NCBI GenBank assembly: GCA_964422385.1
Contig: CAYRBL010000001.1
Span: forward strand, 19,999 to 83,998
Reading direction: 5' to 3'
Source: an uncultured Bacteroides sp.
GTDB lineage: Bacteria > Bacteroidota > Bacteroidia > Bacteroidales > JACABE01
Length of the DNA: 64,000 nucleotides
Shown here: one piece after another, positions 1 to 64,000 of the stretch
Numbering within the stretch: the stretch's first letter is position 1
How the letters are laid out: each line of letters starts with the position of its first letter
Notes under the pieces: model-generated
Database searches by the model: none
What the model was told of the DNA's origin: nothing
The model's input: only the letters and a program-made list of their open reading frames with translations
Program-made: the position numbers and the translations under genes

Positions 1-306
1 TTCAAAGCTGCGACTACTTTGAATTTGCCGGAGTTACCAATTGTTGAAGCAGCAACATCCAACGTTAATTATGTATATGATTCTCTTAAAGGGATGATTT
101 TAAACATGGATGGAAATTGTTTAGATCAATGAGATTACCAAGAACTGATTAGAAATTATATGTTTCTATATGCTCATGAAGAAGCCATGAGATTAGAAAG
201 ATATGACGATGCTGAAATGTTTTATGATATAATTAAAAAAGAATTTGCTAATTGCTCTTCTGATAGCTCTTTATTAGTAAGAAAACTTAATCAATGCAAT
301 TGCTAA
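1..306 (+). CDS. hypothetical protein, C-terminal fragment (start lies upstream of window)
   Basis: Frame 1 is open from the window edge to TAA 304-306. One in-frame TGA at 130-132 (LDQ-W-DYQ). The next gene starts 1 nt after the stop (TAA T ATG). Confidence 0.6.
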
Positions 307-307
307 T

Positions 308-1384
308 ATGACTGATATATATAATTCAATTGTATCTTCCATAACTAAATATTTATACGATTTACAGTATTTAGCTAGAAACGATACTAAGACTGCAAAC
401 GATATAATGTTGCTGATTATAGGTAAAGAGATTTATGATTGAAGTGTTTGATATAATTCTTATTCAAGTGACTTAATAAATAATACAACAATTTATAAAT
501 CTATACCTATATCAGATATAGATACTATAAATAAGTTTAATAAGACTATTATTCGCAATAATCAAAAATTGGTGAATTTTGTGATTCCTACTAATAATAC
601 TTATAAAAATATAAATACACCACAAACCATTTATACATGGCAACGCGTATATGATGATTTCAATGTAAGAACAGTAGAACCAGATACATCTAACCCAACT
701 ATTATAATATCGCTAACTGCTTTAACAAATTTTACTTATAGAGTAGGTCAAGGCCCTTCTGTAACACAATCCTTTGTAGTAAGTGGTTCTGATTTACGAA
801 CAGACATTGTAATTACTGCGCCTTCTAGTTATGAAATATCATTATCTCAAAATTCAGGATTTACAAATAGTATTACATTACCTAGAGTAAATAAAATTGT
901 TACAGATACAACAATTTATGTAAGATTAAAATCTGGATTAAGTGCAGGTAATGTAACACAAAATGTAACTATAACTTCTTTAGGTGTAACTACAAAAAAT
1001 ATAAGTTGTAGTGGATTTGTACTCTATATGCCATTTTTCTATAATAATATTATTACTAACACTAAACCTATAGCTTCAGAGGAATTAATTAATGCAATGG
1101 ATACTACAATAAGAGATGAAGATTCTAATGGAAGTATAATAATACCATTTTTATCACCATTTGGTTCATTCTCTTGGTTTGCTATTCCAACAACATCTAT
1201 TCAAAAAAGAAGTTGGTATGAAAATGATTTCAATAAAGAAAACATTGGCGGTAATGGTAATTTATTTGGAGATATAACAACATATGATATTACAGTTGAT
1301 GGGGTATTAGTTAACTACTCATTCTACATTACAAACTATCAATCTGAAATTGATACAATAACAATAATAAATACTACAATATAA
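308..1384 (+). CDS. virion surface / tail-fibre-cluster protein (358 aa with TGA=Trp); central beta-sandwich-like segment
   Basis: ATG 308, same frame as track ORF 569-1384. No TAA/TAG in between, only TGA at 440 and 449 (YD-W-SV-W-YN). Lies in the tail-fibre cluster. Stop TAA overlaps the next ATG (TAATG). Confidence 0.65.
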
Positions 1385-3576
1385 TGGCTGTAACAATTTA
1401 TAACAAACTTGATTTAAAAAAGGCAGACGTACTAGATATTAGATATGGGCCTTGAAAAGATACAACTTCTGCAATTGCAGGAGTTGCATATAAAGCGGTA
1501 GGGCTAACTGTTGGTATAGTCATAGGTACTATTGATCCAAGTTATTTTGATTCGTCAGGTAGATTAACTGGGACTTTACCAATTAATTTACCATCTACTG
1601 CAAAAGTAGTAGAATATTGGTGAGAGACTGATACTTCAAGTTTAGTACTTAAATCACAAGATTTATCTACTTATTATAATAAAACTGAAACAGATAATTT
1701 ACTTAATGTAAAAGCTAATCAAACTATTTTAGTATCATTAATAAATCCTGATCCTATAACATTAAATATAGGAGATAAAGTTTATAATCCAGATGCTAAA
1801 TTAATATATAATGTTATATCAGGAAATCCAGATAATACTTATGATGCTGGAACAAGTCCACAGTTAGGAGTATTATATGAATGTAATAATTTACTTTATG
1901 AATGAAACGGCACTGATTTAATTTTATTAGGATCCTCTTCAGGCTTATTTGATGGAGATTATAATCATTTAACTAATAAACCTACATTAGGTACAGCTGC
2001 TGCTAAAAACATTCCTGCAACTGGAAATGCTTCTGCTACAGAAGTAGTATATGGTACAGATAGTAGATTAACAGATTCAAGAACTCCTAATTCACATGCT
2101 GCATCACATACAAATGGTACTGATGATATTGCAATAGCCACACCTAGTGTAAGTGGTAGTGAGGGAAGTAAAGGTTTATTATCTGCAATTGATAAAGAGA
2201 AATTAAATAGTATAGCAAGTGGCGCACAAGTAAATGTTGCAACTAATTTAGGACAAGGTACAATAACAACAACTACAGTTCCTTTAACATCTAGTACAGG
2301 TTCTGGAACTACTTTATCAGCAGCAACACAATCTGCTGCAGGTGTAATGTCGTCTACGGATAAAACCAAATTAGATGGTATAGCTAGTGGTGCTAATGTT
2401 GGTGTAGTTCCAAATGGTGCAATTACTGGAGCTACAAAAACTAAAATAACATATGATTCAAAAGGACTTGTAACTAGTGGTGCTGATGCTACGGCTGACG
2501 ATATATTAGACGGAACTAATAAACATTTATTAACAACTGCACAACAGACAGTGTTAAATAATACAAGTGGCACTAACTCTGGAGATAATGCAACCAACAG
2601 TCAATATAGTGGTTTGGCCACATCAAAACAAGATGTCTTAAGTGTAGATGCAAATGAGGGAATAACTATTACCGCAAATTCAATAGGAACTCTTTATAAT
2701 TCAACTATTTCAGATAGTGTTCAAAGTGTAGTAGTAGGTGGAGCTCCAGCACAAGCTGCATCTGTTTGAAAAGCAAAATCTTTAGTACAAGTTTTAGATA
2801 CTATTTTATTTCCAACTATTTTAGCATCAATAAAAACAAATAAATCAGTTGATTTAACTATAAGTGGTACAACAGGAACTTTAGAAAATGGCCAAACCAT
2901 TTCTCGAACTTTAACTGCAACATTTAATAGAGGGGAGATATATAATGGAGATGGTACAACAAATGCAAATCCACTTGTTGGGACTGCAACCCAATATACA
3001 TTTACAGGAACAAATATTTCAAGTACACCACAAGCTGGAAACACATTAGCAGTCTCAAACGTAGTTGTAGATGGTTCAAATAACTGAGCAGTTACAGTTA
3101 ATCATAATGCCGGCAGTGGAAATTATTTTGATAATAAAGGAAATATTGGAACCAATTTAGATGCAAATCGTGTTAGTGGGACATCAGTTGATTCTTCCTC
3201 AAGTCCAACTGTAACAGGTGTTTATCCTTGATTTTATTTAAAATCCTCTTCACCAATTACAGCGAATGCTATGGCTACTGCTATTCAAGCAGGTACAGCA
3301 ACAAAAGTAGTAGCATCAAGTACAGGAACAATATCTATACCTTATAACGTAAATGCACAGTATTTAGCAGTAGCTTATCCTGCAGCATCAACAACTAAGA
3401 TAGTATATTATGTAACTGCATTGGATAATGGAGCTATTACAGTAGTATTTGAGGCTGTAACAACACAGAGTGTAAACTCTCCTGATTCTTATTGGTCAGC
3501 ACAATCATATAAAATACATGTTAGTAAGTCTGCATTGACAAACTCTAACGCAACAATAGAATTAAGAAATTCATAA
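1384..3576 (+). CDS. tail fibre protein (730 aa with TGA=Trp)
   Basis: Merges track ORFs 2347-2769 and 3271-3576 with upstream open frame. Six in-frame TGA. Phage tail-fibre repeat motifs GLLSAIDKEKLNSI (about 2170-2215) and GVMSSTDKTKLDGI (about 2341-2385). N-terminus is paralogous to the next gene. Confidence 0.8.
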
Positions 3577-3577
3577 T

Positions 3578-6500
3578 ATGGCATTAACAGGAATACAATT
3601 ATCAGCTGGTATCGTAGTAGGATCTAACGTAAGTGTAGATGCTAAATATGGACCATATGCTGATGTACCAACAGCAAACAGTCAAATTGGTTCAACTTTA
3701 AGATATAAAGGATTAACTGTAGGAATATTATCAGGAGGATCAGTAATAGAATATTGATATAAAGATGATATATTAGATACTAGTTTAATAGTAAAATCTC
3801 CGGATTTATCTACTAAACAAGATACTTTAGTTTCAGGTACTAATATTAAAACTATTAATGGAACTTCAGTTTTAGGTAGTGGTAATATTAGTATTACTGG
3901 TGGCGGTGCCGGCGGAGATACTAGTGCTATACATACTACTATAGCAAATGAAATTAGTACACTTACTGAGAAAACAACTCCTGTAGGAACTGATTTGATT
4001 ATTATAGAAGATTCAGCTGCAAGTGGAGTTAAGAAAAAAGTTCAATTAACTAATACTCCTATATCTTCGGCAACACAAACAGCATTAAATGCTAAAGAGC
4101 CTACAATAACAAGCGGTACAACAAGTCAATATTATCGTGGTGATAAAACTTTTCAGACTTTAGATAAAACGGCAGTAGGTTTAAGTAATGTAGATAATAC
4201 TTCTGATACAAATAAACCAGTAAGTACAGCAACACAAACAGCACTTAACGGTAAAGAAAATAATATTACTGCAACAACTAGTGCAGATTATTATAGAGGA
4301 GATAAAACTTTCCAACCATTAAATAAAGCAGCAGTTGGGTTAGGTAATGTTGATAATACATCAGATGCAACAAAAAATTCTGCAATTGCAACACTTACTA
4401 ATAAAACAATAGATTATAATAATAATACTTTACAAAATATTCCTTTGGCTGCTGGTGGATTAACTCAACCAACAATTAGTGGAAATACTTCAAGTGGAGT
4501 ATTAACTATTGAAAGTATGTTAGCTAATTTATATTCTACATCAGATCAAACTGGAGATATAAAGAAATATACAATTGCAGCAACAAATAGTTTATCTGCT
4601 TTAAGTCCTAATACATATTATTATTTATATGTTGATTATACAGGAGGTAATCCAGCATATGCAATAACTACAGATAATACAATAATTACTCATTCTAATA
4701 AAATTGCAGTAGCTCAAATTTATTGAGAAAGTGTTGGAAGTATAAATGAATTTGATATTTTTTATGTAGGTACTTATGGTTATGGATTAGCTAATAAAGT
4801 AGCACATAGATTAATACATACTGAAAGATTTGGTTATGAGTCTGGATTAGGATTAGGTGAGGATGGCAGTCGACATATAACTATTGGGAGTGGTTCTATA
4901 TGATATGATGGTGAGAATGTAATGATAAACACAACATTAAATTCAGGAAGTACACCATATCATTTTTATTATCATACTGAGGTAGGTGATTGGAATTTAA
5001 CAACTGCAAATATTTATAACAATACTCAATACGATTCTACATTAACAGGTTTACAAACTTTATCTAATGGTAAATATGCTGTAAATTGGGTATATAGAAG
5101 TTTAGCTGGAACAAGTACAGAAATGTATGTAGTATTAGGAAATGGAAATTATACTTTAGCACAAGCTCAAGCTTCTACTCCTCCAACTGTTACAGCTAAT
5201 TTATCTAAAATGTCTATCTTAGTAGGTAGAATTATAGTACAAAAAGGAGCAACAACTGCTACACAAATTGATTCTGCATTTACAAAAACATTTGCAACAT
5301 CAGGTGTATTTAATCATAATGATTTAAGTAATATACAAGGTGGTTCTGCAGGAAATGAATATCATTTAGGTTTAACTAATGAATCGTTAACTAAGACTAC
5401 GCCAACAACATCAGATAACTTATTATTAAAAGATGCAGCAGATAGTACTTGAAAAAATGCAAGTCTAGCAAATATTCCAATCTCAACACCACAACAAACA
5501 GTGTTGGATCAAAAGAAATATTTTCATGGTATATTATCAAGAAGTACAGTATTACCTTTACCAACAACAAGTTTATCTACACCTATATTTACTTTAAGTA
5601 CAGGAACGACTAATTTAATTTATTATAATCAAGGTGTTAAATATACTGTTTCTGTAGATAAAGCCACAGCATTACAAGGAAATCCTTCTACAGCACAAAC
5701 TAGTGGTAATTTAGTTATTGGTCAATATTATATTATTAATACTTACGCAGGAGGTGATTTTACTAATGTAGGTGCAGCATCTAATGCACAGTACGTTGTA
5801 TTTCAAGCAACTGGTACAACACCTGCAAGTTGAGGTGGAGGTTCAACATTATATAACATGTCGGGATTATATTGAATATATTTTTCTGATGCTAATGGTA
5901 CATTAGTTAATAGTACTATATTTCCAGGAATGGATGATACAAATGTTATAGTTTCTGCTGTATATTGGAATGGAACAACAGGTATCGTATGAGATGAAAG
6001 ACACTCTTATAACAGAGATATTCAATGACATACATGAGCACATAGTACTATTGGTACAAGATATGGTAGTGGATTAAGTTTTTCATTTGCTGGAACAACT
6101 AATACTGATACAACATTTACAATAGGTGCTGGTAATATATATGATGAGGATATAGCCTTTACTATAGGTTCTACAACAAAAGCTAGAATATGATATCAAA
6201 ATAGTGTATCAACTTATACTTTTGTAAGTTCGTTGTCTAATAGACCTTATTATACAGCTAGTGAAAGTACACCTGCTGCAGGTATATATGCTGTAAATGG
6301 AAGTACATATGCACTAACAGCACCTTTAACATCATCAACAAGATATTTTAATTATTTTGTTTATGCTACTACTTCAATTGCTAATCCTATACATATATTT
6401 GTAGAAACAGTTGCAGTTGGAAATATAGGAGGTTATACTTCAGTAACAAATGCTAGAGCAGCATCTCTTCCAAATATTAATTCTGTAGGTTTAAGTCCAG

Positions 6501-6961
6501 AATATAAATTACTTTATAGGGTAATTGTAAATGGCGCTGGGTTAGTTCAAACTGTTACTACAGCAGATGATTATAGAGCACAAACTTCTTTAGCGGGAGG
6601 TGTAAGTGCAAGTACTACAGCATCAAGTGTTTCATTTGCTCCTTATAGTTCTGTTACAGCAAGTACTGTACAAACAGCAATACAACAATTAGCTAGAGTA
6701 CAATTAGGTGTATTTAAAAATGGATTAACATCAGTTGCACAACCACAAGCTTTTAGTTATCCTTATAATTTAACTTGTACAGCAGTAACTAAACAATTAA
6801 ATTGTAGTGATTATTCTGTAACAATTGGGGCGACTACTTATAATACAGCAAGTACTTTAGTGGGAGTTTCTATACCAGCTAATACTACAATAACTTTTAA
6901 TGATTTAACAATTTCAGGAGCAGGAGTAATAGCTAATGCTTTATTTACTTTTAATGAATAA
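3578..6961 (+). CDS. tail fibre protein (1127 aa with TGA=Trp)
   Basis: Merges track ORFs 3995-4726, 4922-5452, 5501-5833 and 6233-6961, all phase 2. Ten in-frame TGA, no TAA/TAG. Tandem fibre repeat YYRGDKTFQ.L.K.AVGL.NVDNTSD (4124-4400). N-terminal domain shared with CDS 1384-3576. Confidence 0.8.
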
Positions 6962-6967
6962 TAGAAT

Positions 6968-7222
6968 ATGATACAAATAACAGACACAGTACAATTTGAG
7001 AATGGTTTATTATCTGAACAAACAGATGAATTTAAACAATGGTATGGAGAAAATGTGGCTTCTCAAATTACAGATTTGCTTCCTATAGAAGCAAGAGATA
7101 AATATAATAGACCTTATTTATGAAAAGTTTCAGTAGCAGGATATACATTTGAAGTATATCCCCAATACATTTATGAAACAGCTTCTAATTGGGCAATGTC
7201 TAACATTTTAATTAAATTATAA
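6968..7222 (+). CDS. small hypothetical protein (84 aa) within tail-fibre cluster
   Basis: ATG 6968, one in-frame TGA (PYL-W-KVS), TAA 7220-7222 overlapping the next ATG. Not in the ORF track because it is split by TGA. Confidence 0.5.
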
Positions 7223-9951
7223 TGGCATCAAATTTATTTAAATTAAAAACTGTTCCAAATCCAGATGGAAGTGAATCATCTAATTTTGTAAATAATACAA
7301 GTTATGCATTTGTACATACTTATTTAGGAGATGATTCTACAGGAAATGGAACTAGAGAATATCCATTTAGAAGTGTAGCTAGGGCAGCATTAAAAAATAA
7401 TAAAATAGTATTTAGAGGAGTTATTAATGAAAGTCTAGTTAATATAGCTATTATTGGGGATGATATTAATCAACAAGTTACTACATCTAATTTTGGAATT
7501 ACATATGGACAAGGAACTAGTCTTGTTAATTTAACTACTGAATATCCAACTCCTATAGGATATGGACTACCTTTATCAAGAACAATATTCACTAAAAGTA
7601 ATTCTCCTTCTTTTGCTTCGACAAATGAAAATCAAGGATTTAGAAATTGTTTATGTTATGGTTTAATTTCTGGAACTAATTCATCAAGTATTGGAGTATT
7701 TATAAATAATACAGTTAATAGATTGAATTATAATGGAACTGGAGTACAATATGTAAAAAATTCAATTATAATAACTGATTTTACTCCTACTTCTTCATTA
7801 TCTTGATTTTATTATAATATATTATTAAGTAATACAATAATTAAAAGTAATGGAATAAATATAGTAATTCCAAATTTTACAAATGATAGTAAAGCAAATC
7901 TTCAAATTTTAAGAAATGCTTTACAATGTTCAGCTGGTTCTGAAGCTTTTGTTTATTCAAGTTATACATATGTAGCAGGAGTATCTGCAACTTTTACAGG
8001 AAGTATTAATGGTACTGGAACAACTGCTAAAATAGCACATGATTCTGGAGTTACTTGTTTTGGATTAAATAATTCTTATAATGGTACATTACAATCAGCA
8101 ATAACAGCAAATAGTACTCCAACTACAATTACATTATTGATATCAAATCCAACAGCATTTCCATCAACTGGAACAATTACTATTCCAAATACAGGAAGTA
8201 TTAGTGCATCAACAACATTAACAATGTTATCTAAAGATTCTTTTGGAAATGAAGTTAATTTAATTATTAAAGAAACTAGAAATGGAGGGAGTCATCCAAA
8301 TATTTTTAATAATTATAATACAAATATTACAACAACTTTAGGAACTACAATTCCAATAAATCCAGTAACTGCTTTAACTACTGTTGTTTTAACAAATGGT
8401 TCAGCTTTTCCTTCAACCGGAGATTTATTTATTACTAATGATGATGGAAGTGGGTATGAAGTATTTACTTATACTTCAAAATCAGGTAATAATTTTACAG
8501 GAAGTTATAAATTTCAAAAAGCACATACTAGTGGTGTTACAGTAATACAATATGGAAGTGTAATAGATTATACTTTAAATCCAGATGTAAATAATGAAGC
8601 ATTATGAGCAAGTGATATTGGAGCATATACAGGATGTTTTAAACCAACATCACCTGTAAATTCATCTGTAACAACATTTGGAACAGTAACAGATGTAAAT
8701 ACATCTGGAGTTGATACAGCCAATGTTTCAAATTTAATGTTAAAAAACTCCGATGATACAATATCTTTTCAAAGTAGTGGAACTGGACAAATATGAAATA
8801 GACTTAGGACTATTGGCGTTATTACAATTCCTATAGGTACTACATTTAAAGGTTTACAAACCATTTCTACAGATGGAAGTCCTTTTGGCTATTATTTTGG
8901 TAAATATCAAAATTTAGTTTCTGCAAGTTTTATTTATGCAACAAATGCAACAGGTAGTCCATCACCTACAACACTTAGTCCAAACTCTATTTATAAAGTA
9001 AGTAATATTGCACATGATATTACAAAAGCTATAATATATGGAAATACACAATATTTACCAGACTTTTTTATAAATACAATACCTATTGGTACTATTGCGG
9101 TAACAAACGGAAGTCCTAATGTTACAGGTACAAATACTACATTTACTAAATTTTATAAAGTAGGAGATACGATAGTAATAAATGGAATATCTAAAACTGT
9201 ATCTTCAGTTACTGATACAGCAATAATCGCTGATTCAAATTATACAGCAGCGTATAATGGAAGTTATACTCCTCCTTTAACATTTACTCTTACTAATCCT
9301 GGAAGTGGTACTGAAACAGTATTATATAAAATCTTAGGTGATCCAATAGAAAGTGTTGAAGTATATCCTTATGATGATTCTGCAGGAACAGTTCCAAGTG
9401 TAACGTTTCCTAAATTCTCAGCACCTTTAGCAGCACTAGTTTTATGTCTTTATTATAGTGCTACGGGAGCAAGTAGATATGAAAAAACAACTGGAGCTCC
9501 TGTTTTATTTTATGATTTAGTAAATATAGCACAGTTAATGGCTGATTTTCCTGGAACAAATCCAGTAACTACATTAGCAACAAGTTTAAGTGGGAATACA
9601 ACAACTGTAGTACTAACTTCATCATCAGGGTTTCCTCCATTTGGAACAGCAAGAGTTGGAGCAACACCTTTTGTTTATACTTCAATTACAAGTAATACTT
9701 TAAATGGATCGAATCAAACTATGGGAACAATTACTGCTGGAGAAAGAGTAGACTTATTATATAAATTAGATAATCCTAAAATATCATATTATTCTTCTGG
9801 AAGTGCAATTAATACAGGATGGCAAGTAAGTAATGCTGATGAAGAGTTTTTAACTCTATCACAGAGCGCTTATTTTACAACATCAACTCCATCATTTAAA
9901 TATTGTAAGTTAGAAATAAATGGTCATTTTGATTTAGCATTCGATTACTAA
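7222..9951 (+). CDS. large tail fibre/spike-like protein (909 aa with TGA=Trp)
   Basis: Merges track ORFs 7222-7806, 8137-8607 and 9538-9951, all phase 1. Three in-frame TGA. T/S/N-rich beta-type composition and position in the fibre cluster. Confidence 0.65.
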
Positions 9952-9952
9952 T

Positions 9953-10237
9953 ATGAGTTTATTATCAGAGCATTTAGCTATTCATAGTACAGATACAGCA
10001 AGAAATCAAATCGAAGCTGTATCTGTACCAAGGATATCAAGTATTGGTTTAGTTTTAGATTTTGGAATTGTTCCTTCAAATAATGCAAATAAATCTTTAA
10101 TTTCAAAAATCAGTAGAATTGGTGTAACTATAGATTATGGTGCTGTTCCTAATAAAAATTATTTTCCAACAAGAATTAATACTTTAGGAATTATAGTAGA
10201 TACTATACCTGCAAATTTAATGATACAAGTTTTATAA
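9953..10237 (+). CDS. small hypothetical protein (94 aa) with three internal I..xG...D.G.VP.N repeats
   Basis: Track ORF. Start is 1 nt after the upstream TAA. Repeats are ISSIGLVLDFGIVPSNN / ISRIGVTIDYGAVPNKN / INTLGIIVDTIPAN. Confidence 0.45.
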   Translation: MSLLSEHLAIHSTDTARNQIEAVSVPRISSIGLVLDFGIVPSNNANKSLISKISRIGVTIDYGAVPNKNYFPTRINTLGIIVDTIPANLMIQVL

Positions 10238-10238
10238 A

Positions 10239-11067: not shown

Positions 11068-11087
11068 AAAATAAATTAAATGTTATT

Positions 11088-11144
11088 CTACCCTTATTAT
11101 TAACAAAGTTTAATGAATATATATTTTGTTAGTAATAAAGGTAG
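11088..11144 (+). promoter_or_regulatory. long imperfect hairpin at the lysis/head module boundary
   Basis: CTACCCTTATTATTAACAAA (11088-11107) pairs with TTTGTTAGTAATAAAGGTAG (11125-11144): 18 Watson-Crick pairs, 1 G-U and 1 mismatch, with a 17-nt loop. No T-tract follows it. Confidence 0.5.
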
Positions 11145-11152: not shown

Positions 11153-11237
11153 CACTAAATAATGGAATACAACTATTTCATTGATAAAGATGAATAAACG
11201 AGATAGATTTTAAATATTAAACAATTGTAAATGTAAA

Positions 11238-12224: not shown

Positions 12225-12236
12225 AACTAGATTACT

Positions 12237-13667: not shown

Positions 13668-13678
13668 GTAATTAATTA

Positions 13679-20940: not shown

Positions 20941-20942
20941 AT

Positions 20943-53400: not shown

Positions 53401-56400
53401 TTAATAATTTACTAAGGTCATTTGATTCTGATATTAAAGGCATTGTTCCAGTAATGAATAATGTCTGAGAAGCAGAAAATACTAAACCAATAGATTTTAA
53501 TTACGAAACTTTGCGTAACTTTAAAAAATATTCAGGATTTATAGACGATAGAATGACGGCTTATGACCAAAACTTCCTAGAAAATAAGTTAGACCAAATC
53601 TTAGACCAAGTATCTAATCGAACTTATATATCATGGGAAAAATCACATGAGTTTGTTGTTGCTCGTATTCCTGCTCAATCTATGCAATCTTTCATGGAAA
53701 TGAAAAATGTAGGATATTTTGACACTGACTCAAATGAAGCATATGTATCTGTATGGCAAATCTTTATTCAAGGTTCCGACTTTGATATTGATAAGGCTTA
53801 TATTATGGGACATGGTTTTAATAAAGCTGGTCATTATGAAACTGCTAATGATATTTTCGATTTCCATAGTAAAGAAGCGTTAGATATTATTGAGCAAATG
53901 CCTATACCTAGTGATATAGAAATTAAAGAAGTTGAACCTGGCAAGAATATTACAGACATTTCAAATGAATTTACTCAATTTGTTAAAACAAATGGTTTAG
54001 ATAATTTCGAAGATACATCTAAATTCACACCAGAAACATTGCAATTAATTAGTAATGTATTAAATAAAATTCTAAAGAAAACTAACGTATCAATAAATTA
54101 TAAAGCAACTGAAGGAGAAACAATAACTCCAGAAATGCAAGTTGAATTTGATACTTATAAACAAGCTTTCTTAAATTTATTAAATAAATACAATACTTCT
54201 AAGAGATATGCTGATAAGAAATTCTCTATTCCAAACTCGGTTGTAGCTGGAATTAAACAGATTATTTCTTCACCAACAAATCAAATATTTGCAAATAAAC
54301 CAGTGGATATTGGTCCGTTACATGCTGGAGCTGATGCAGCTTTTAGATTGAAACAAGATAGAATTAAAACTTTAAGTGATGCATTGCTAGCTGAAGCTGT
54401 TGATAAAGAATTAACTGAAGAATACAAAAATACCATTGAAGCTATTTATAAACTTAACTTAGTTAATACTTCTAAAATTAAAACTGTAAAAGAAGGTGTT
54501 GCTGAAGCAAAACGTATTGATAAACTAAGAAATACTTTATCTGCACATGACGTTTTAAGTTTCTTCAAACAACAACAAGATGCTTCGGTTGGTAAGACTG
54601 ACGTAGGTATTGGAGCAAATGGTTTGAAAGTAATGTTCGCTTTAGCTAATTATTACAACGACTATTATAAATCTTTATATCATGAAGAAGCTACTGATAA
54701 CACAGGAGTTACTTTAGATATCTTAAAAGATAAAACAGGTAAACAAGTGGACTTTAATACTGATCCAAAATGGTTTAAGAAAACCTTTAATATGGGGGAA
54801 CCATTAGGAACTGTAATTAAAACTACAATTGCCGACGTAAATATAACACAAGACTTAATTGACCAAATTGTTTCAAACTACGGTTTGCATGATTTAGAAA
54901 GTCAATTACAAATTATCTTAGATGGAGAAGCCGCATTACATGCATCTGGTATGGTATCTGGTGCTACAGATAATGCGAAAGAGTTAATTATGGCTAAGAT
55001 TAATGCTATTGAAGATTTAACATCAATGCACTTGTATATGATGACTTTAGGGTTTACATCACAAGAAGTAGCGATGTATATGAACTCCGATTTAGCAACT
55101 CATTTAGTAGACAAAATTAATTCTACAAATATATTTGGAGGAAAAACTGATGTATTTATTGCATCAGAAATTCAAAAATATGCAAAAGAAAATCCATCTC
55201 AACAATCAGTTGCAGAGACATTTTTAGATATTTATGAGGGTAGTAAAGAAATGGCTAACCTAGCAGGTATTTTAAAAATTAATCAAAGAACTAGTGCAGA
55301 TATTGAAAGTTTATTCCTATACTTAAGTAAAATTAATAAAGCTATGTACTTAAGAGAAGATGATGTTCTTGGAAAAAGTTTAATAGGATTACAAAATGGA
55401 AAAGATATAAATAAACTAGTAAAAGAAATTCAAAAAGCTCATCCAAATACTTTATCAGAAGAATACATTAAAGATGTTTTACAAAGAGCTTCTGACATCG
55501 AAGTAGAATTTATTAACAGTAAAGGCTTAACTGAGAAGAAAAGAGTATCAATGATAGGAGGACAATTTGATGTTCGCTATTATGTTTATCCTGGAAAAAT
55601 AAACGATACTTATAGAAAATTAGCTACAGAATATTATAACTTATTTAAAAATACTATTAACGTATTTGACGTAATTGATAACTCTGTTCATTTTAAAGCA
55701 ATGATTGAAGGATTGAGTGCAACTCATAATAAATCGTTGATTACTTCTAAAAAGTATAATTTCATATTTAACACAGCAATAGATGTTATTCGTGAAAAAT
55801 CAGCAGCCTTATTCTTAAATAATAATAAAGAAAAAGGTGGAAATATTAAGACATTCTTAGGAAATCCTGCATTATTTATTGATACTTCTGAAAGGGAAGT
55901 TAATAGATTATTAAGAGGTTACGATGGCTTCTTAATTGGCCACTGGTTAAAACAAGAAGATACTAATCACTTTAAGTTTAATGTTAAAGCTTTATTAAAT
56001 CAAGCAGGAGAAAAGTCAATTGAAATGTTTACTGATAACTCAGCAAAAACAATTGCTTATGGAAAAACAAATCCTCATACTGTTAAGATAACTACAGACT
56101 CTGATGATTTCGTAGTAGATTTAACAACTGACTATGGTATTGCAAACTTTAAAAGAATAATGGAGAATTTAATTCTTCCTATTTTACAAAGTTCAAAAAA
56201 GTCAGGACTTGGAGAAATGTTTAGATTAAAATCTGTAAAAAATCCATTTGGTATTTATACTTCTCAAATTGTTTCAGTATTTGGATTAAGTTCCTTAGAC
56301 TCCGAAGTAAATCTTGCTAAGTATCAAGAAATCTTAAATCATTTCAATGAAGTAGACTACAAAGTTGAACATGAAAAACGGATTACCAATAACGATAATA

Positions 56401-56877: not shown

Positions 56878-59800
56878 ATGGCATGTTATTATCATTTAAG
56901 ATTACCAGCTGGTGGGGAGATAAGAATCCCCGCCAGTTTCAGTAATTTATCACTTACCGATTCTGAGAACTTAAGAGGGCTTATAGACAACTATAAGAAT
57001 AATAAAGAGGATTCAAAAACCGAATTAATATCTTATATTAAAAATAACACACCTTTAAAAAACCAAGCAATTACGTCTCTTGTAGAGTCAATACCTATTG
57101 ACAATGCACAGATAACAGATGAACATTTAACTAATTTTATAGCAGCTAATAATGAGCAAATTGAAGCTCAAGGAGAGTTTGCAGGTATTGCAGATACTCT
57201 GAGAACAGCTATTTATAAAGATAATAAGATTGAAGCTGTTGATGAAAATGGCGTATGGAAAGAGATGAAGATTGACCAAGTATTAAAAGAATTACAAAAA
57301 CCTATATTTACTAATTACTTTCAAAATATTGATGCTGCCAAAGTATTAAATGGAAAAAGTTATAATAAAACAATTGATGATATTAAGTTTAGGCAGGCTC
57401 AATTAGATTCATTAGGTATTAATTCTGATATATTTAGTGATTTTCAAACAGTACTTTCATATGCATTTCCTAACCAAAAAGGTATTCGAACAGCTAATAA
57501 TTTCTTTAAAACTAAATTTAATTCTAAATCTGGCGTAGGGCAAGATGACTCTGTTTTAATTTATGACAAAGGATTGGAAAATCCATTGATTTTTTATAAT
57601 GAGAATAGTGACTTGTCATTACATTTCGCAGTTTTTAAAATTTTAGGAATTAAAGCCTTAGAAGGCAAAAATGAAAAACTAAAAGAACTTATCGAAGGCT
57701 TCAATAAAGATGCCGGAGAACAAAACCAAATTGATACCAACTTAACTCCAATCGAATTTTTCAATGGTCAGTTGAATGCTGAAAAAGAAAGATTAGATCC
57801 TGAGTTCTATAAGATGCTCAAGTTTAAATATGGAGAAAGGTGGGCTAAAAAAATAATTGACCTAATGGTTGAGGATTTACCAGAAACAGATAAATTAAGA
57901 CTAGGTCGATCACTTACTTCCATTCTAAATTTTATGGATCCTAGTAATATGAGTAAGTTTGATGAAGCAATTCTAAAAACTAAAAATAATACAAAAGAGT
58001 TATATAACGTTAGAATACAAGGAGAACAATTACAAATTCAATCTATCTATCAATTATCATCAAGACAAAATAGACCTTTGCATTATAATTTTGCAGAAGA
58101 AAGTCAATTACTTGCTACTCCTAATGATATTAATAACTTTTTAAATTCTAAAATTAGAAGAAACTTAGACATCATTAAGATTGAAATTGAAGATCCATTA
58201 GATCCTACTAAAAAATATAGCCCTCGTTATATTGTACCTACTTATTGGAGTGTACGAGATAATTCAGTATTTATTAGAGGATGGTATGATAATAATGGAA
58301 CTCTTACAAGATATGAAGGAATGATAAAACCAAACCGTAAGATTACATATTCTACATTTGCATCAGCTGCTAAACCATATGTTTATACAACTGATATTAA
58401 AGCAAAAATTGAAAAGCCATTAATTGTTAAAATTGATACTGAAAATCCATTACCTAATACAGTACTACTTAAGTTAATACAAAGAGGAACATATATAAAG
58501 TATTTGGATAATAAAGGAGTTGAACGTAATGGTAATGTAAAAAATGTATTCCCAGGCGGTGTTAAAATGAATACAGAATATAATAAAACTGGAGCATTTG
58601 AACCAGACGTTAAGCTTTATAATATAAGAGAAATACATACTGATGCTTCATCATTAGAAGCTATTGTACCAGATGCATTACTAAAAAGCGATGCAGATGT
58701 ACAAACATTCTTAATGGGTAAAGCACAAGAAATAATTAAAGGATTAGAAAAATGGGATAGAAATGCACCGGTATCAGAAGATGATTGGGTAGCCATAGAA
58801 TCAAATGGGCAATTAAGATATAATATGGTTATTGGCCAAACTAATAAAAAAGTTTATATCTTTATTCAAACAAGTAAAGGTTCTAGAATTGAAACCATTA
58901 ATAAATCTGAGATTAAAAATGTATATAAACCAAAAGAAAAATTTGACACAAAAATGTTTGCTCAAATTGGATCTTTCTATAACACAGTATTAAATGAACA
59001 CTCAATCCGTGATTATGGTTATTCGGTGTTTACTGATTATGAGAGGGCTATGGATGGGGACTATGTGTGGTCAAAGGAAAACAAAGTTTTATATAAAATA
59101 AGCAATAAAGAAAATAAACAATTAATTAAATTTGCAATAAAAAATGGAGCAGAATCTATTGATTATGTAAGTGAGTTTCCTGTAGATGCAGTGTTTATTA
59201 CTGATAGAAATATTGCTTCAAACAATTTTGCATCAACAATTGAATTTAATAACTTTCATTTATCTACCTTCAGTTTAGATCCTGATAGTAAAGAAAAAAG
59301 AGGATATTTTGTTCCTAAAGATGCAGTACTCAGTTCTGAAATGTTATTACCATCAGGTAACTTAACAGTAGGATTTGTGCATTTTGCTGATTTCAAATAT
59401 GACCCGAATGTTTATAGAGATGCTACTGCGGAAGTAGTTAAGCTTATCAATGAACGTGATGGTAAAAAAGGTAAAGCAGCTAATCCTGACTTAGCAATTT
59501 TCCAAGAGAAAGGTTATATCAAAAGATATGATGCTAATTTATATGGAACACAGTACGATAAAAGTAAAAATAAATTTTTACAACAGGGAGTTTATGTTAC
59601 TTTAGCTAAAGAAGATGGCTCCGCAAGTCATAAGTATAGAGTTGAATCTAGAGATGGTGATAAACTATTATTAGAATACAATACCTATAATAGAAACGGT
59701 AAAGTGTTAACAGTAAATAAATACTTAGATTTATCGAAAGATGAAGGAAGTATTAAAAATTTATATATAATGTTTGGAAATAGCCGTTTAAAAGAATTAC

Positions 59801-60474
59801 AAGCATTAGATACTAAAAATGATGCAGTTAATGAAAAAATGACTAAAACAGAGTTAATGAACAATATAACTGATTCATTTTATCAAATATATAATATTGA
59901 CGTTGCTACAGTTCATTCCGAAGAAAAAGGATTGAAAAAGAGAAAAGCATGGATTGATGCTAGTTCTGGTGGCAATAAAATTGTTATTAATACTAATGTT
60001 CCAGGTTCGGAACAAGAGTTAGTCCATGAGTATTTACACTTATTCTTAATGGGTGCTAAATATAATAATGGAGATGTTTATGAAACATTAATGACTAATT
60101 ATCTTAAATCTAAAGGGGAGTCTACAGAAAATATTAATTTAGAACAAGTCGAAGAAAGATTTGTAAATGAAGTAAATGAATTGATGTGGAAAGATCCTGA
60201 GAAATTAATATCTATTGACGTAAAATCTTTCACTGCTATGTTTGATAGAATAATGAAAGATTTAAAAGTTATTGAAGAGGATGATGAAACTTTCTCTCCT
60301 GAACGTGGTTCTTTTGAATCGGTATTTAACATTTTAAATTATAAAATGGAAGATATTTTTAAGGGAGAAACTTCTAGAAAATCTAAAACTAACTTACTCT
60401 ACTATGATGCTAACTTCAAAAATTGGCTAAATGATCAGATTGATAATAATAACTTACTAATAAATTGCAGATAA
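56878..60474 (+). CDS. giant protein 3 (1198 aa) with C-terminal HExxH (zincin-like) motif
   Basis: Track ORF with no TGA. SEQELVHEYLHLFLMG, with HEYLH at 60025-60039. Start is 1 nt after the upstream TAA. Confidence 0.7.
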   Translation: MACYYHLRLPAGGEIRIPASFSNLSLTDSENLRGLIDNYKNNKEDSKTELISYIKNNTPLKNQAITSLVESIPIDNAQITDEHLTNFIAANNEQIEAQGEFAGIADTLRTAIYKDNKIEAVDENGVWKEMKIDQVLKELQKPIFTNYFQNIDAAKVLNGKSYNKTIDDIKFRQAQLDSLGINSDIFSDFQTVLSYAFPNQKGIRTANNFFKTKFNSKSGVGQDDSVLIYDKGLENPLIFYNENSDLSLHFAVFKILGIKALEGKNEKLKELIEGFNKDAGEQNQIDTNLTPIEFFNGQLNAEKERLDPEFYKMLKFKYGERWAKKIIDLMVEDLPETDKLRLGRSLTSILNFMDPSNMSKFDEAILKTKNNTKELYNVRIQGEQLQIQSIYQLSSRQNRPLHYNFAEESQLLATPNDINNFLNSKIRRNLDIIKIEIEDPLDPTKKYSPRYIVPTYWSVRDNSVFIRGWYDNNGTLTRYEGMIKPNRKITYSTFASAAKPYVYTTDIKAKIEKPLIVKIDTENPLPNTVLLKLIQRGTYIKYLDNKGVERNGNVKNVFPGGVKMNTEYNKTGAFEPDVKLYNIREIHTDASSLEAIVPDALLKSDADVQTFLMGKAQEIIKGLEKWDRNAPVSEDDWVAIESNGQLRYNMVIGQTNKKVYIFIQTSKGSRIETINKSEIKNVYKPKEKFDTKMFAQIGSFYNTVLNEHSIRDYGYSVFTDYERAMDGDYVWSKENKVLYKISNKENKQLIKFAIKNGAESIDYVSEFPVDAVFITDRNIASNNFASTIEFNNFHLSTFSLDPDSKEKRGYFVPKDAVLSSEMLLPSGNLTVGFVHFADFKYDPNVYRDATAEVVKLINERDGKKGKAANPDLAIFQEKGYIKRYDANLYGTQYDKSKNKFLQQGVYVTLAKEDGSASHKYRVESRDGDKLLLEYNTYNRNGKVLTVNKYLDLSKDEGSIKNLYIMFGNSRLKELQALDTKNDAVNEKMTKTELMNNITDSFYQIYNIDVATVHSEEKGLKKRKAWIDASSGGNKIVINTNVPGSEQELVHEYLHLFLMGAKYNNGDVYETLMTNYLKSKGESTENINLEQVEERFVNEVNELMWKDPEKLISIDVKSFTAMFDRIMKDLKVIEEDDETFSPERGSFESVFNILNYKMEDIFKGETSRKSKTNLLYYDANFKNWLNDQIDNNNLLINCR

Positions 60475-60475
60475 T

Positions 60476-63400
60476 ATGAGCTGTACATATGAATTAAAAG
60501 ATGGCGACAAAACAGTCGTAAAAGATTCTATTTTAGAATTATCACAACACTATTATCGAGCAGGAGTTAAATTAGCTAATCAAAAGATTTTTAGTACTGA
60601 AGAAATAGTTGATAGTGTGAGAAAACCGTTGCTTGAAATAGCATCGAGAAAAGATAGTATAAGAAGTAACGCAGCAACAACTGGTGTTGTTACATTTATA
60701 TCACAAGTTAATACTAGTATTTTTAAAAGTAAAGGTATTAACAAAGACCGATTAGTTCCTGAGTATAATGAGGACAATCGTATATTAAATTTTATCTTAG
60801 ATAAAATGCCTGCAACATTAAGGAACTCAGTAACTAAGTTAGAAAATTTACAAGATATTGTAAATAAAGATAGTACACTTACTGATACATATACTGAGAG
60901 ATTGAAGGAAATTAAAGATATTATTGAATCTGAAAAATTAACTAATCAATTAGGTATTGATATCCATAATGGGTTAGACTTATTATTAAGAAGCCAAAGT
61001 GGTACTAAAGGAGAAGATATATCTCAAATTGTAGACAGAATTGTAGACAAGAATGCAGATATTCTTGATAATCCAGACCAATGGAAAATTCGTTTAAAAG
61101 ATGTCCTTGGAAAAGTTTTCAGTGAAATTAGTACTATTATTAAAGATGGTGGTACAATATTATCTGAGTTAGATATTGATACAATGGAAGACTTAGAGGG
61201 AACTCATGCTAAAGATGCAGCAGTTAAGTTAAAAGGACGTATTGACCTTGTAGCTATTGACCGAGAAGGAAATGTTCATATTTATGATGTTAAGGTTTCT
61301 AAGAACCCTTATGATGAATGGGATCAAGTAAAAAGTTATAGTACTGATTGGCAGTTAGCTTTTTATCGTGGTTTACTTGGACAGTATATTGATGTTAAAG
61401 GTGCGACCCTTAATGTTATACCAATTAGCACTGGCTCTGTAGTTACTGACGAAAATGGACGTAAACAAGTATTACACAATAACTTAAAATATGATAAACA
61501 AGTCAATCTACTTCAAAATCCAAATAAAGGGTTAAGAGAAAATGGTGCTTTATGGAATGTAGTAGCTGCCCTTATTCCACAGAAAACAATTATTGATTAT
61601 GACCCAGAAAGACAAAAAGAGTTTGAGCAAGAATTAAAGCAGTTACTTCCAAACTATGAAATCAAAACGAGTAACTTAGAATATAATCCTCAAAAAATTG
61701 TAGAAGCTGCTAGAAGAAGTGGAACATTTGACTTATTCAATAGTTTTGATGACACATTAACTGGAGAATTAGTAACTCAACTTTCATCCTTAGGATTTAC
61801 TCAAGATTCTAATTCAAGAATTTTTAAATATAAATGGGAACCAGGAACTTCAAGTGCTGAAAAAGAAGCTAAGTTTGCGGAAGCAGTACAAGTATATACT
61901 GACTTTGCTAAAGCTAATAAGAACAATAACTTAGTGAGTTTGAAGAACTCTGTTATTTCAGCAGTAAATAGTGGAGCTTTAACAGTAAGCTGGCATAATA
62001 ATAAAATTGAGGATACTTTAAATAGTTTATTAAAACAATTTTTATTAGGAAATCATCGTGTTATAACTCGAATACCAGAACTTGATAAATTAGGCTTTAT
62101 TTTATTTCAAAATAAAGAAAATAATAAATATTCATTATTAAGTGTTAGTGCATTTACCGCTAACGCATCATATGAAAATAACCTATTATATGGTGAACTA
62201 GAATATTTAAAAGCGTATGCCTTTTTAAATAAATTTCATAAAGAATTAGATTTAAAGAGAAATAAAGTTGAAGCTGTGAGTGTATTTAATTTACAAGAAG
62301 GTGTTCCATTTTATAGACCACTTGATGCCATGTTTGAGAAATTCAAAAATCGAATGGAAGGGATGGGAATGCAAATGAATATTCAAGCACATGAAGTCTT
62401 ACCAAAAGATGAAGAAGTTGCTAGAGATATTTTTAGAAATTCATTAAGAACATATTCTAAAGAAGATAAAGATGCAGTGTTAGAAACATTAGCCCCTATA
62501 CTTAATCAGTTCACTGATGTATCTGGAGAACAATTAATTGATATTCAAAGAAAACTAAGAGAGAAATGGCACTTAGAAGAGAGAACACTTGACAAGTTAT
62601 CTTATGATAATGAACGTGAGTATTTATATGCTTTAATAAGTTCTATGATTGTATTAAAAAGTGCTTTAGTTCCATATGGAGACTTTATGGATATGAAGAA
62701 TTTTGGTATTGCATTTTCGGATTTTAAATCTATTGTTAATAGTTTATGGACAGACAAAGTTGAAGCTTATGATAGAACTGGAAAAGCAATTCAAGGTATT
62801 ATTGGTGGGTTAAAAACAATTACTCCTGATAAAGTAAACTCTATTGACTTACGTAATATCAATATGTTACTTAATAGTGCGAACTCATTTGTTCGTCAAG
62901 ATTTCTATAAACAATCTACTATTATTGGTTCTCTAACAAGAGAATACTTTAAAAAGATTCATTATAGTCCTACTGAACAAAATTGGATTGGTAATTATAG
63001 AGGTAAATATGAGAATATGTGGGTTAGAGAAAATGGCTCAATTTCTAATATTTGGTCAGTTAAAAATCCATATGCATTTGATGCATCTAATGGTTTAACA
63101 GCCCCTGAAAGAGAACATCTAAGAAAGATGTTATTTGAAATCAAGAAATACGAACTTGGTATTACTGAGAAAGAAAATGTAAATATTGATACTTTAGAAA
63201 CTTTATCTAAATCAAAAAGTGGTTTAAAAATCTTAGCCGCTATTGAAAACGGAAACTATTTCAAAATGCCATTGGTTAAGAATCAACAAATTACAAGAGC
63301 TGGAACTCTATGGAAAGATGGATTTAAAGGATTTGCTGATGCTGCAAAAGAAGTAGGACAAGAGGTTCAAGATTTCTTTGACTCTCGTGAACTTAGAGAA

Positions 63401-64000
63401 GAAGAAAGGATTAACTTAAAGAAAACACAACTTGGTTATTATGAAATGTACGATATATATGGTTTACAATCCGATTCATTCAAAAAGGATATGGTTGATA
63501 AGCATGGAGATATTGAATTTGAATTAAGTTTAGATATCATTGCACATAAATCCGCATTTAATAAAATTCGACAAGACCACATGAATAGAGTATTACCTAT
63601 TGTAAACTCATATATGTGGTGGATGAAATTAAGAGCTGGTGTATCTAACAAAGATATTTCTAAGGAATTAGACTATGTAGTTAATAGAATTAACTTAGCT
63701 GCTTACGATGCTCCTATTGTGAATGAAGAAGCAGAAGATGTTATTAAAGCTGTTTCAGTTGCAAAACGTATTACTACGATGGGTATGTTAGCATTTAGAC
63801 CTGTGCTTTTATTTAAAGAATTAACAATTGGTTTATATAAAGGTATCGCTTTAGCATCAACTAAAATTTATGGTAAACAACAATTTAGTTTAAAATCATA
63901 TACTAAAGCGGTTAAATCTTTAATTACTGTAGATAATAAATTCGGCCCAGAGTGGAACTTACTTGACGCAGTTAATAATTTTTATGGGTTTGCTAACCGT
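60476..64000 (+). CDS. giant protein 4, N-terminal 1175 codons (continues past window end), with PD-(D/E)xK nuclease-like motifs
   Basis: ATG 60476 lies 1 nt after TAA. I read phase 2 codon by codon to 64000 and found no TAA, TAG or TGA. It is absent from the ORF track because it has no stop inside the window. GRIDLVAIDREGNVHIYDVKVSK ... QLAFY at 61235-61366. Confidence 0.8.
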   Translation, partial: MSCTYELKDGDKTVVKDSILELSQHYYRAGVKLANQKIFSTEEIVDSVRKPLLEIASRKDSIRSNAATTGVVTFISQVNTSIFKSKGINKDRLVPEYNEDNRILNFILDKMPATLRNSVTKLENLQDIVNKDSTLTDTYTERLKEIKDIIESEKLTNQLGIDIHNGLDLLLRSQSGTKGEDISQIVDRIVDKNADILDNPDQWKIRLKDVLGKVFSEISTIIKDGGTILSELDIDTMEDLEGTHAKDAAVKLKGRIDLVAIDREGNVHIYDVKVSKNPYDEWDQVKSYSTDWQLAFYRGLLGQYIDVKGATLNVIPISTGSVVTDENGRKQVLHNNLKYDKQVNLLQNPNKGLRENGALWNVVAALIPQKTIIDYDPERQKEFEQELKQLLPNYEIKTSNLEYNPQKIVEAARRSGTFDLFNSFDDTLTGELVTQLSSLGFTQDSNSRIFKYKWEPGTSSAEKEAKFAEAVQVYTDFAKANKNNNLVSLKNSVISAVNSGALTVSWHNNKIEDTLNSLLKQFLLGNHRVITRIPELDKLGFILFQNKENNKYSLLSVSAFTANASYENNLLYGELEYLKAYAFLNKFHKELDLKRNKVEAVSVFNLQEGVPFYRPLDAMFEKFKNRMEGMGMQMNIQAHEVLPKDEEVARDIFRNSLRTYSKEDKDAVLETLAPILNQFTDVSGEQLIDIQRKLREKWHLEERTLDKLSYDNEREYLYALISSMIVLKSALVPYGDFMDMKNFGIAFSDFKSIVNSLWTDKVEAYDRTGKAIQGIIGGLKTITPDKVNSIDLRNINMLLNSANSFVRQDFYKQSTIIGSLTREYFKKIHYSPTEQNWIGNYRGKYENMWVRENGSISNIWSVKNPYAFDASNGLTAPEREHLRKMLFEIKKYELGITEKENVNIDTLETLSKSKSGLKILAAIENGNYFKMPLVKNQQITRAGTLWKDGFKGFADAAKEVGQEVQDFFDSRELREEERINLKKTQLGYYEMYDIYGLQSDSFKKDMVDKHGDIEFELSLDIIAHKSAFNKIRQDHMNRVLPIVNSYMWWMKLRAGVSNKDISKELDYVVNRINLAAYDAPIVNEEAEDVIKAVSVAKRITTMGMLAFRPVLLFKELTIGLYKGIALASTKIYGKQQFSLKSYTKAVKSLITVDNKFGPEWNLLDAVNNFYGFANR

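Follow-up and report, generated by a model that had tools for sequence, protein, structure and literature searches.

The 64,000-nucleotide (nt) stretch of DNA analyzed here, referred to below as the window, corresponds to positions 68199 to 132198 of a 163,047-bp record, contig NODE_25 of ENA ERZ4223863. The analysis read 88 kb of this contig, the window included. The window has a G+C content of 30.9% and carries 35 protein-coding sequences (CDSs, numbered g01 to g35) on the forward strand, in which the triplet TGA recurs in frame. It is very likely the late region, comprising genes for virion, lysis, and giant virion proteins, of a ~163-kb crAss-like phage in which TGA stands for tryptophan (Trp) and TAA and TAG are the sole terminators. 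The features on which this assignment turns are as follows; lengths are in amino acids (aa).

1 to 64000, forward strand: late-gene super-operon of 35 co-directional CDSs with 60 to 62 in-frame TGAs, delimited as frames ending in TAA or TAG
1 to 10565, forward strand: TGA-rich block, g01 to g08, with 28 TGA versus 11 TGG codons
1384 to 3576, forward strand: g03, tail-fiber paralogue, assigned from its paralogous N-terminus
3578 to 6961, forward strand: g04, tail-fiber paralogue, assigned in the same way
10239 to 10565, forward strand: g08, hydrophobic membrane protein of 108 aa, holin-like and encoded immediately upstream of the endolysin, assigned from hydrophobicity and position
10567 to 11067, forward strand: g09, endolysin (PHROG phrog_7, E = 7.5e-22; precomputed Pfam Phage_lysozyme)
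10567 to 18384, forward strand: TGA-free block, g09 to g16, capsid gene included, with 0 TGA and 24 TGG codons
12237 to 13667, forward strand: g11, crAss-type major capsid protein (Pfam PF23898; PHROG major head protein; tblastn)
18391 to 19095, forward strand: g17, crAss tail ring protein 1, terminated by TAG, with a TGA at 18967 (Pfam CrAss_Ring_1)
22757 to 26935, forward strand: g22, 1392-aa structural protein with 10 in-frame TGAs (alignments to relatives)
28916 to 30208, forward strand: g26, weakly PurD/ATP-grasp-like in its C-terminal part only (PDB 1vkz, E = 2e-4, residues 255 to 332), with a TGA at 29228
30210 to 30788, forward strand: g27, DUF192 protein in which TGA 30366 is the conserved Trp of FWMxxT (Pfam, PDB)
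31765 to 56876, forward strand: g30 to g33, giant proteins of 1635, 636, 2953, and 3135 aa (frames ending in TAA or TAG)
56878 to 64000, forward strand: g34 and g35, code-neutral block with 0 TGA and 25 TGG codons, g35 running past the window end
130, 440/449, 1621, 3755, 10302, 18967, 19860, 27387, 29228, 30366, 33685, 37502, 38974, 46558, 46693, and 47985, forward strand: in-frame TGAs that were checked

The 16 TGA positions in the last line had been singled out in the original prediction, an earlier reading made from the sequence alone, and all of them lie in frame within frames delimited by TAA or TAG. With these two codons as the only stops, the window resolves into the 35 contiguous forward-strand CDSs that had been proposed, the first and last of which are cut by the window ends. 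The 34 stops inside the window are 31 TAA and 3 TAG (at 15800, 19095, and 31691), and none is TGA, again as proposed. The count of 62 in-frame TGAs holds if g18 starts upstream of 19173, and it is 60 when counted from the chosen ATG starts. One detail needed correction: the start of the first CDS is not at 94 but outside the window, at L170 7352, ~300 nt upstream. The CDSs are tightly packed and co-directional, with TAATG overlaps at many junctions. No TAA or TAG occurs in ~21,100 in-frame sense codons, compared to 42 to 77 TAA and 17 to 33 TAG per 1000 codons in the two off-frames. Because the off-frames are full of these triplets and the reading frame contains none, the open frames past each TGA are not due to chance, which bears out the earlier argument. 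The comparison of codes that had been called for gave the expected result: with TGA read as sense, forward-strand open reading frames (ORFs) that reach 300 aa or more covered 55.5 kb instead of 38.6 kb, and reading TAG as sense made no change in the forward-strand ORF coverage of the window.

If the standard code applied, the fragments split by TGA would be separate genes or pseudogenes, or they would be joined by occasional read-through, and the public calls made on the source contig under code 11 do list these fragments separately. The same calls split TerL, the tail fibers, and the giant proteins, so that standard-code calling breaks about half of the region, as had been anticipated. For instance, TerL, which lies upstream of the window and contains in-frame TGAs, was returned by the code-11 caller as pieces of 156, 212, and 267 aa, and g33 appears under standard-code callers as pieces of 987, 476, 190, and 1121 aa. 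That these pieces are genuine separate genes is barely credible: the frame continues past every TGA over the ~21,100 codons free of TAA and TAG, alignments to relatives run across the TGA positions, the essential TerL, ring protein, and giant virion proteins would all be broken, and many of the fragments lack a start codon close to the point where they begin.

Comparison with relatives strongly supports Trp as the amino acid read at TGA. For this, 24 IMG/VR loci were fetched around homologues of the capsid gene, and their codons were mapped onto the window through tblastn alignments. Among the 115 codons that stood opposite window TGAs, 77 were TGA, 21 were TGG, and 2 were TCT, and window TGG codons stood opposite TGA in these relatives 142 times. 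A second alignment, designed to avoid bias, placed X at every window TGA and used two GenBank contigs as the comparison: MT835470, which follows the standard code, and MT835492, in which TAG is sense and TGA is kept as a stop. The residues opposite the window TGAs were W (13), Y (5), L (3), F (2), I (2), and H (2), with G and S at 0, and this profile matches that found opposite window TGG codons in the same two relatives. The assignment of Trp in the original prediction thus stands. These counts also bear on glycine, the reading of TGA under code 25 that is found in phages of Absconditabacteria and Gracilibacteria. Code-25 phages are known, and one contig that carries a homologue of a neighboring protein was binned as Saccharimonadaceae, a candidate phyla radiation (CPR) lineage. 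However, none of the 115 codons from the IMG/VR relatives was GGN and none of 32 from the comparison relatives encoded Gly, and window TGAs fall on invariant Trp positions; a glycine reading therefore has next to no chance of being right.

Individual genes gave the same picture. First, TGA 30366 coincides with the W of FWM(K/R)NT, the DUF192 motif seen in PDB 3pjy and 3m7a, as the original prediction had it, and the Pfam DUF192 match of g27 (residues 14 to 111) runs across this codon. Second, the equivalence noted earlier between the tail-fiber paralogues was found: one reads VVEYW (TGG at 1618, then TGA at 1621) and the other VIEYw (TGA at 3755). Third, the homologue of g22 in MT835470 forms a single unbroken alignment over residues 21 to 1149, with 7 of the 10 TGAs of g22 inside it, and 5 of the 10 stand opposite W in both MT835470 and MT835492. 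Fourth, the CrAss_Ring_1 match of g17 (31.1 bits against a cut-off of 27) spans residues 81 to 217 and so includes the TGA at residue 193; this codon, at 18967, is opposite W in MT835470 and is TGG or TGA in relatives. Finally, when TGA is counted as Trp, the Trp content of the five blocks of the window is, in order, 1.12, 0.97, 1.16, 0.77, and 1.05%, and that of the first block without TGA would be ~0.3%. Two of the earlier arguments were weaker. The argument from a PurD-like motif at TGA 29228 is weak and found no confirmation, since the match of g26 to PDB 1vkz is marginal, the TGA lies outside it, and there is no Pfam match. The argument that the TGAs of g08 occupy helix ends, as is typical of Trp, is only plausible.

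The use of TGA was very uneven among the window blocks (chi-square p = 5.5e-14). The share of Trp codons written as TGA was 72% in 1 to 10565, 0% in 10567 to 18384, 46% in 18391 to 31398, 14% in 31407 to 56876 (g29 to g33, 9 TGA versus 56 TGG), and 0% in 56878 to 64000. Therefore, the claim that the whole window is recoded holds outside two blocks, and those two, 10567 to 18384 and 56878 to 64000, fit either code because they contain no TGA. Some TGG Trp positions of the first of these blocks, including positions in the capsid gene, carry TGA in relatives. The unevenness extends to the lysis genes, where all five Trp codons of the holin-like g08 are TGA and all four of the adjoining endolysin g09 are TGG. 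Expression level, timing, and gene turnover are candidate causes.

Beyond the window, the recoding proved to be confined to the late, rightward gene block. Directly past g35 the genes switch to the minus strand, beginning with a glucosaminidase, a dGTP diphosphohydrolase-like protein, and ThyX (L029), and none of the clear minus-strand genes beyond the window contains TGA in frame. Genes of the early, replication type can all be read with the standard code, and a TGA appears to terminate some of them. A close relative, IMG/VR 3300030019_000570 (capsid 92% identical; 41 kb read, with an early block of 31.5 kb), has helicase, primase, PolB, ligase, and dUTPase genes that are intact under the standard code, and its early block has a TGA:TGG ratio of 6:101 compared to 58:125 in the window. 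The 50 stops in the 41 kb are 37 TAA, 8 TAG, and 5 TGA, and three ATGA stop/start overlaps occur. On the source contig, a double TGA-TGA (L029 22197 to 22230, minus strand) stands at the end of a 147-aa early gene that is located upstream of ThyX and shares its frame; neither TAA nor TAG separates the two. Judging from this arrangement, suppression of TGA late in infection would fuse the 147-aa protein with ThyX by read-through. A walk along IMG/VR 3300030019_000570 past the early side met early genes and one tRNA-Asp; the suppressor is on the other side, upstream of TerL. The tRNA-Asp(GUC) lies at the far end of the early block in close relatives (L207 and L208, positions 55 to 129), and a tRNA cluster may begin there.

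The same pattern was weighed against a host that itself uses code 4, as Mycoplasmatales and recently described Eggerthellaceae lineages do, in which case the phage would merely share the code of its host and no phage-driven switch would be involved. TGA is clearly read as Trp, and code-4 bacteria exist in guts (PMC13462651). However, an AT-rich code-4 genome should have TGA as its main Trp codon in every gene, which is at odds with the 6:101 and 58:125 ratios of early and late genes and with the apparent early TGA ends, the ATGA overlaps, and the TGA-TGA double stop. The phage also has a tRNA(UCA) of its own, and of its relatives, MT835470 follows the standard code and MT835492 a TAG-recoded one. 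In addition, no Shine-Dalgarno sequence precedes any of the CDS starts in the window, as suits Bacteroidota hosts. A code-4 host is therefore improbable, and a phage that departs from the code of its host in its late genes remains the preferred reading.

The two GenBank relatives, whose capsids are ~52% identical to that of the window and which are its nearest there, thus differ in code. MT835470 has 36% GC and no tRNA and fits the standard code. MT835492 has 29% GC, and its ORFs of at least 150 aa cover 45 kb with TAG as a stop and 100 kb with TAG as sense. It has five ordinary tRNAs, and a CUA suppressor tRNA was not detected among them or elsewhere in it. One candidate, a "tRNA-Pyl(cta)" returned at a relaxed threshold, was AT-rich with no tRNA-like fold and was taken as a false positive.

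Neither the window nor L029 contained an RNA gene according to ARAGORN and Rfam. The original prediction had suggested a search of the rest of the genome for a tRNA with anticodon UCA, and a single such gene was found outside the window, ~14.5 kb upstream:

53629 to 53721 of the record (L289 3465 to 3557), forward strand: tRNA(UCA) gene of the source contig, sequence ACGAGTTTCGGCAAGTGGTATGCCACCAGTCTTCAAAACTGACAGTTGATGTGTCCAAAGCGTCTTCGTGGGTTCGAATCCTACAACTCGTGC (plus CCA)

This is the only tRNA in the 88 kb read. The gene sits between leftward genes and the head of the rightward block, with a promoter-like site 9 nt upstream and an 11-bp terminator-like hairpin followed by a T-run ~80 nt downstream, and a homologous tRNA occupies the syntenic place in the relative with the 92% identical capsid. 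The general tRNA model of Rfam matched it with 49.8 bits, taking the UCA hairpin as the anticodon arm and leaving a 23-nt insertion in the variable region; ARAGORN labeled it tRNA-SeC. Two arms stand in tandem in this tRNA, CCAGU-CUUCAAA-ACUGA (UCA) and then GAUGU-GUCCAAA-GCGUC (CCA). Deletion in silico of arm 1 and the linker leaves a tRNA-Trp(CCA), and deletion of arm 2 leaves a tRNA(UCA), each of 71 nt. The molecule further has an A1-U72 acceptor stem of the Trp type, a G73 discriminator, and a 7/5 acceptor/T geometry. By its sequence, it is a tRNA-Trp body in which the anticodon arm is duplicated in tandem, the UCA copy preceding the CCA copy. This Trp-like body and the codon alignments lead us to infer that it is charged with Trp.

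A long extra arm, G73, and the tRNA-SeC label of ARAGORN could also mean that TGA is read as serine (Ser) or selenocysteine (Sec). Seryl-tRNA synthetase recognizes long variable arms and G73 (PMC7609411), and the tRNA of the relative scores 38 bits on the Rfam tRNA-Sec model. That score, however, is below the tRNA-Sec gathering threshold of 47, and for the source tRNA the best match is the general tRNA model. Its 7/5 geometry is not the 8/5 of bacterial tRNA-Sec, and its extra arm copies the anticodon arm of tRNA-Trp rather than a Ser-type variable arm. The codon comparisons agree, with no Ser opposite TGA in the comparison relatives and TCT at just 2 of the 115 codons in the IMG/VR relatives. 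Moreover, 60 TGAs scattered over structural genes are implausible as Sec sites dependent on a selenocysteine insertion sequence (SECIS). Ser or Sec is thus a very improbable reading, and Trp is preferred.

Tandem-arm tRNAs of the same design also occur on other large phage contigs in IMG/VR. A search pattern in which the UCA loop and the T arm were the sole fixed elements returned 48 contigs, many of 100 to 230 kb, with 39 distinct tRNAs of 93 to 100 nt; together with the source tRNA and that of L212, these give 41 family sequences. The extra sequence folds into a hairpin whose stem has 5 bp and whose loop has the form N-U-CCA-A-A, in which CCA is present in 41 of 41, U in 40 of 41, and the next A in 39 of 41. 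The commonest arm 2 loops are GUCCAAA and CUCCAAA, the latter being the native anticodon loop of tRNA-Trp. The stem of arm 2 covaries, with 146 of 164 cells paired compared to 85 ± 5 after shuffling and several pair types at each position. Arm 2 is inserted 3 to 6 nt past the first arm and is followed by a normal variable loop of 3 to 5 nt. Most members have an AGGGG.../...CCCCU acceptor, G73 is present in 38 of 41, and A1 is the first nucleotide in 31 of 41; the canonical tRNA-Trp(CCA) genes of the same phages share the AGGGG/CCCCU acceptor and G73. In BLAST comparisons with GenBank phages, nt 50 to 96 matched the 3′ halves and nt 6 to 40 the 5′ halves of annotated tRNA-Trp genes. Removal of arm 1 and the linker left a canonical tRNA-Trp(CCA) in 33 of 41 members, and removal of arm 2 left a canonical tRNA(UCA) in 40 of 41. 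When the same pattern was run on bacterial genomes, the U-CCA-A loop was found in none of 17 high-GC tRNA-Sec-like matches and in 7 of 8 low-GC phage-like contigs. Among the loci with a tandem-arm tRNA, 20 of 35 gained at least 15% in long-ORF coverage under code 4, compared to 2 of 35 under code 15.

One further occurrence was in a bacterial isolate. Bacteroides neonati MS4 (NZ_HG726020.1, a 1.48-Mb scaffold; L341 2962 to 3013) carries a tandem-arm tRNA(UCA) identical to that of the IMG/VR locus L332. This tRNA may mark a prophage or resident phage, and it may be a clue to the host of the L332 phage, not to that of the phage in the window.

These tRNAs can be compared with two known groups. 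The source tRNA resembles the tRNA-Trp(UCA) species of opal suppressors and code-4 systems (Mycoplasma, mitochondria, E. coli trpT, and those of Seki et al. 2025) in A1-U72, G73, and the 7/5 geometry, and its anticodon loop CUUCAAA differs from the Trp loop CUCCAAA by a C-to-U change at position 34. Canonical tRNA-Trp(UCA), in contrast, has a single arm, a variable loop of 4 to 5 nt, and a length of ~75 nt, whereas the present tRNAs have a complete second arm, which bears CCA, and are 93 to 100 nt long. With class II tRNAs, tRNA-Sec, and allo-tRNAs they share a hairpin between the anticodon and T arms as well as G73. Unlike in those groups, the loop of this hairpin is kept as U-CCA-A and shows homology to the tRNA-Trp anticodon arm, a normal variable loop of 3 to 5 nt follows it, and the geometry is not 8/5, 8/4, or 9/3. 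The design with two anticodon arms is unusual and apparently undescribed: no published account of a second, CCA-bearing arm was found, in a literature coverage that was incomplete, so this is absence of evidence only.

How might such a tRNA work? Early in infection, the standard code of the host would be in force, and late mRNAs would be truncated at UGA. As the phage tRNA(UCA) accumulates and is charged by tryptophanyl-tRNA synthetase (TrpRS), UGA would come to be read as Trp, and virion and lysis proteins would be made. The all-TGA holin-like g08 beside the TGA-free endolysin would fit the published idea of recoding as a lysis timer. The second arm with its CCA would keep the tRNA recognizable to TrpRS despite the changed anticodon used for decoding; this role of the CCA arm we infer from its sequence. 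Tentatively, and with slightly less than even confidence, the decoder may thus be an undescribed kind of suppressor, a duplicated-arm tRNA-Trp whose first copy reads UGA and whose second (U-CCA-A) is a decoy identity element for the host TrpRS, or whose arms swap into the anticodon position. If the CCA arm does preserve recognition by TrpRS, it would explain how a phage can reassign UGA with host enzymes alone, and the tandem-arm design would be a natural principle for engineering suppressor tRNAs. Suppressor tRNAs were detectable in only ~35% of the code-4 phages of Borges et al. (bioRxiv 10.1101/2021.08.26.457843). Because gene finders label them tRNA-SeC, tandem-arm tRNAs could explain part of this "missing suppressor" problem, and suppressors mislabeled in this way would be recovered if the proposal is true.

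Several points weigh against the reading of the window as recoded late genes decoded by a phage tRNA. First, its two TGA-free blocks are no evidence on the code. Second, Trp at TGA comes from comparison of sequences. Third, the long extra arm and G73 of the tRNA(UCA) also resemble those of class II (Ser-type) tRNAs. Fourth, the standard-code host is deduced from the TGA-free early genes, the apparent early TGA stops, the lack of Shine-Dalgarno sequences, and the crAss-like affiliation. Fifth, the timing model comes from published work and would apply here by analogy. Finally, the ~74 kb beyond the 88 kb read could contain further tRNAs, a TrpRS, or a release factor.

The affiliation of the phage was judged from its virion genes. 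The precomputed Pfam match of g11 to PF23898 (Crass_capsid) identifies a crAss-type major capsid protein, and the match of g17 to CrAss_Ring_1, which is above the cut-off, identifies the crAss tail ring/muzzle module; g15 matched CrAss_Ring_2 with 16 bits, under the cut-off of 27. TerL and portal genes lie just upstream of the window. In tblastn, g11 was 52% identical to MT835470 and MT835492 and 25% identical to Suoliviridae crAss-like phages, and the records nearest to the capsid overall are these two unannotated human-gut phage contigs. A megablast search of window positions 10000 to 34000 against GenBank phages gave no match, and a search for related loci with g02 as the query gave no relatives. 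PHROGs returned nothing for 8 of the 10 proteins tried, and Pfam nothing for g26, g18, g21, g23, g08, both halves of g30, g34, g10, g12, g13, and g14. A homologue (P0120) of a 179-aa protein encoded upstream of TerL was found on a 166-kb NCBI contig binned in a Candidatus Saccharimonadaceae metagenome-assembled genome. That contig is probably a mis-binned phage contig, and the binning could be a hint to a host.

Recoding of this kind is established for crAss-like phages, as the original prediction had stated (Yutin 2021, PMC7886860; Borges 2022; Babkin 2025, PMC12386605). TGA read as Trp in late genes has been published for crAss-like phages (PMC7886860) and for the zeta-group phage "Lera" (PMC12386605), and so have patchy recoding among close relatives and frequent failure to detect a suppressor tRNA (PMC7886860; PMC12386605; bioRxiv 10.1101/2021.08.26.457843). 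The present phage is like these in its crAss-type capsid and ring proteins, its large AT-rich genome, and its tRNA(UCA). It is also like them in having TGA within TerL, structural, and lysis genes, opposite Trp in homologues and in late genes only, and in having close relatives that differ in code (standard, TAG, and TGA). It is unlike them in that its capsid is ~25% identical to those of classified Crassvirales, with unannotated gut contigs nearest at 52%, and in that its capsid module lacks any TGA. It also has one tRNA in 88 kb, compared to 18 to 26 in most of the zeta genomes of PMC12386605 (Table 1). The recoding itself is therefore one more lineage in a documented pattern, with standard-code, TAG-recoded, and TGA-recoded members. 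Any downstream call of gene function depends on code 4 in this region and on the standard code in the early genes.

In the model of Borges et al. (bioRxiv 10.1101/2021.08.26.457843), which covers Agate, Jade, and other clades, a code switch times the late and lysis genes. The same study describes a strongly recoded transmembrane protein in lysis cassettes and recoded intron endonucleases in early genes. The phage of the window agrees with the model in its standard-compatible early genes and recoded structural and lysis genes, in the heavily recoded small membrane protein of its lysis cassette (g08, 5 of 5 TGA), in homing endonucleases with in-frame TGA, and in a suppressor tRNA located outside the recoded genes. 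It differs in two respects, namely that no "code-change module" of TrpRS or release factor 1 (RF1) was seen in the 88 kb read and that the endolysin itself is not recoded. Trp insertion by such tRNAs has a precedent, in that phage tRNA(UCA) inserted Trp in an E. coli extract in 13 of 13 cases tested (Seki et al. 2025, PMC12636597).

The remaining genes that could be assigned in the window are mostly homing endonucleases:

17665 to 18384, forward strand: g16, GIY-YIG homing endonuclease signature (N-terminal motif only)
20107 to 20940, forward strand: g19, homing endonuclease (Pfam GIY-YIG and NUMOD1)
30790 to 31398, forward strand: g28, homing endonuclease (Pfam NUMOD1)
31407 to 31691, forward strand: g29, low-complexity gene rich in Q, G, and A, assigned from its sequence

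Further GIY-YIG/NUMOD homing endonuclease genes were seen at L170 394 to 999 and at L084 2716 to 3156, the latter with ~149 additional codons. The homing endonuclease gene in the early block of the relative has an in-frame TGA and is split under the standard code. At the other end of the window, g35 has a PD-(D/E)XK nuclease domain. An open frame of 88 codons (31403 to 31666, frame +2), with 7 TGG and no ATG, overlaps g29 and is probably a by-product of base composition. Finally, the motif K(F/L)Q(Q/E/V)GG occurs within the first 12 residues of g29, g30, and g31 (at 31419, 31780, and 36692) and also internally in g23 (27915) and g24 (28454); given its recurrence in these proteins, it could be a processing or packaging signal.

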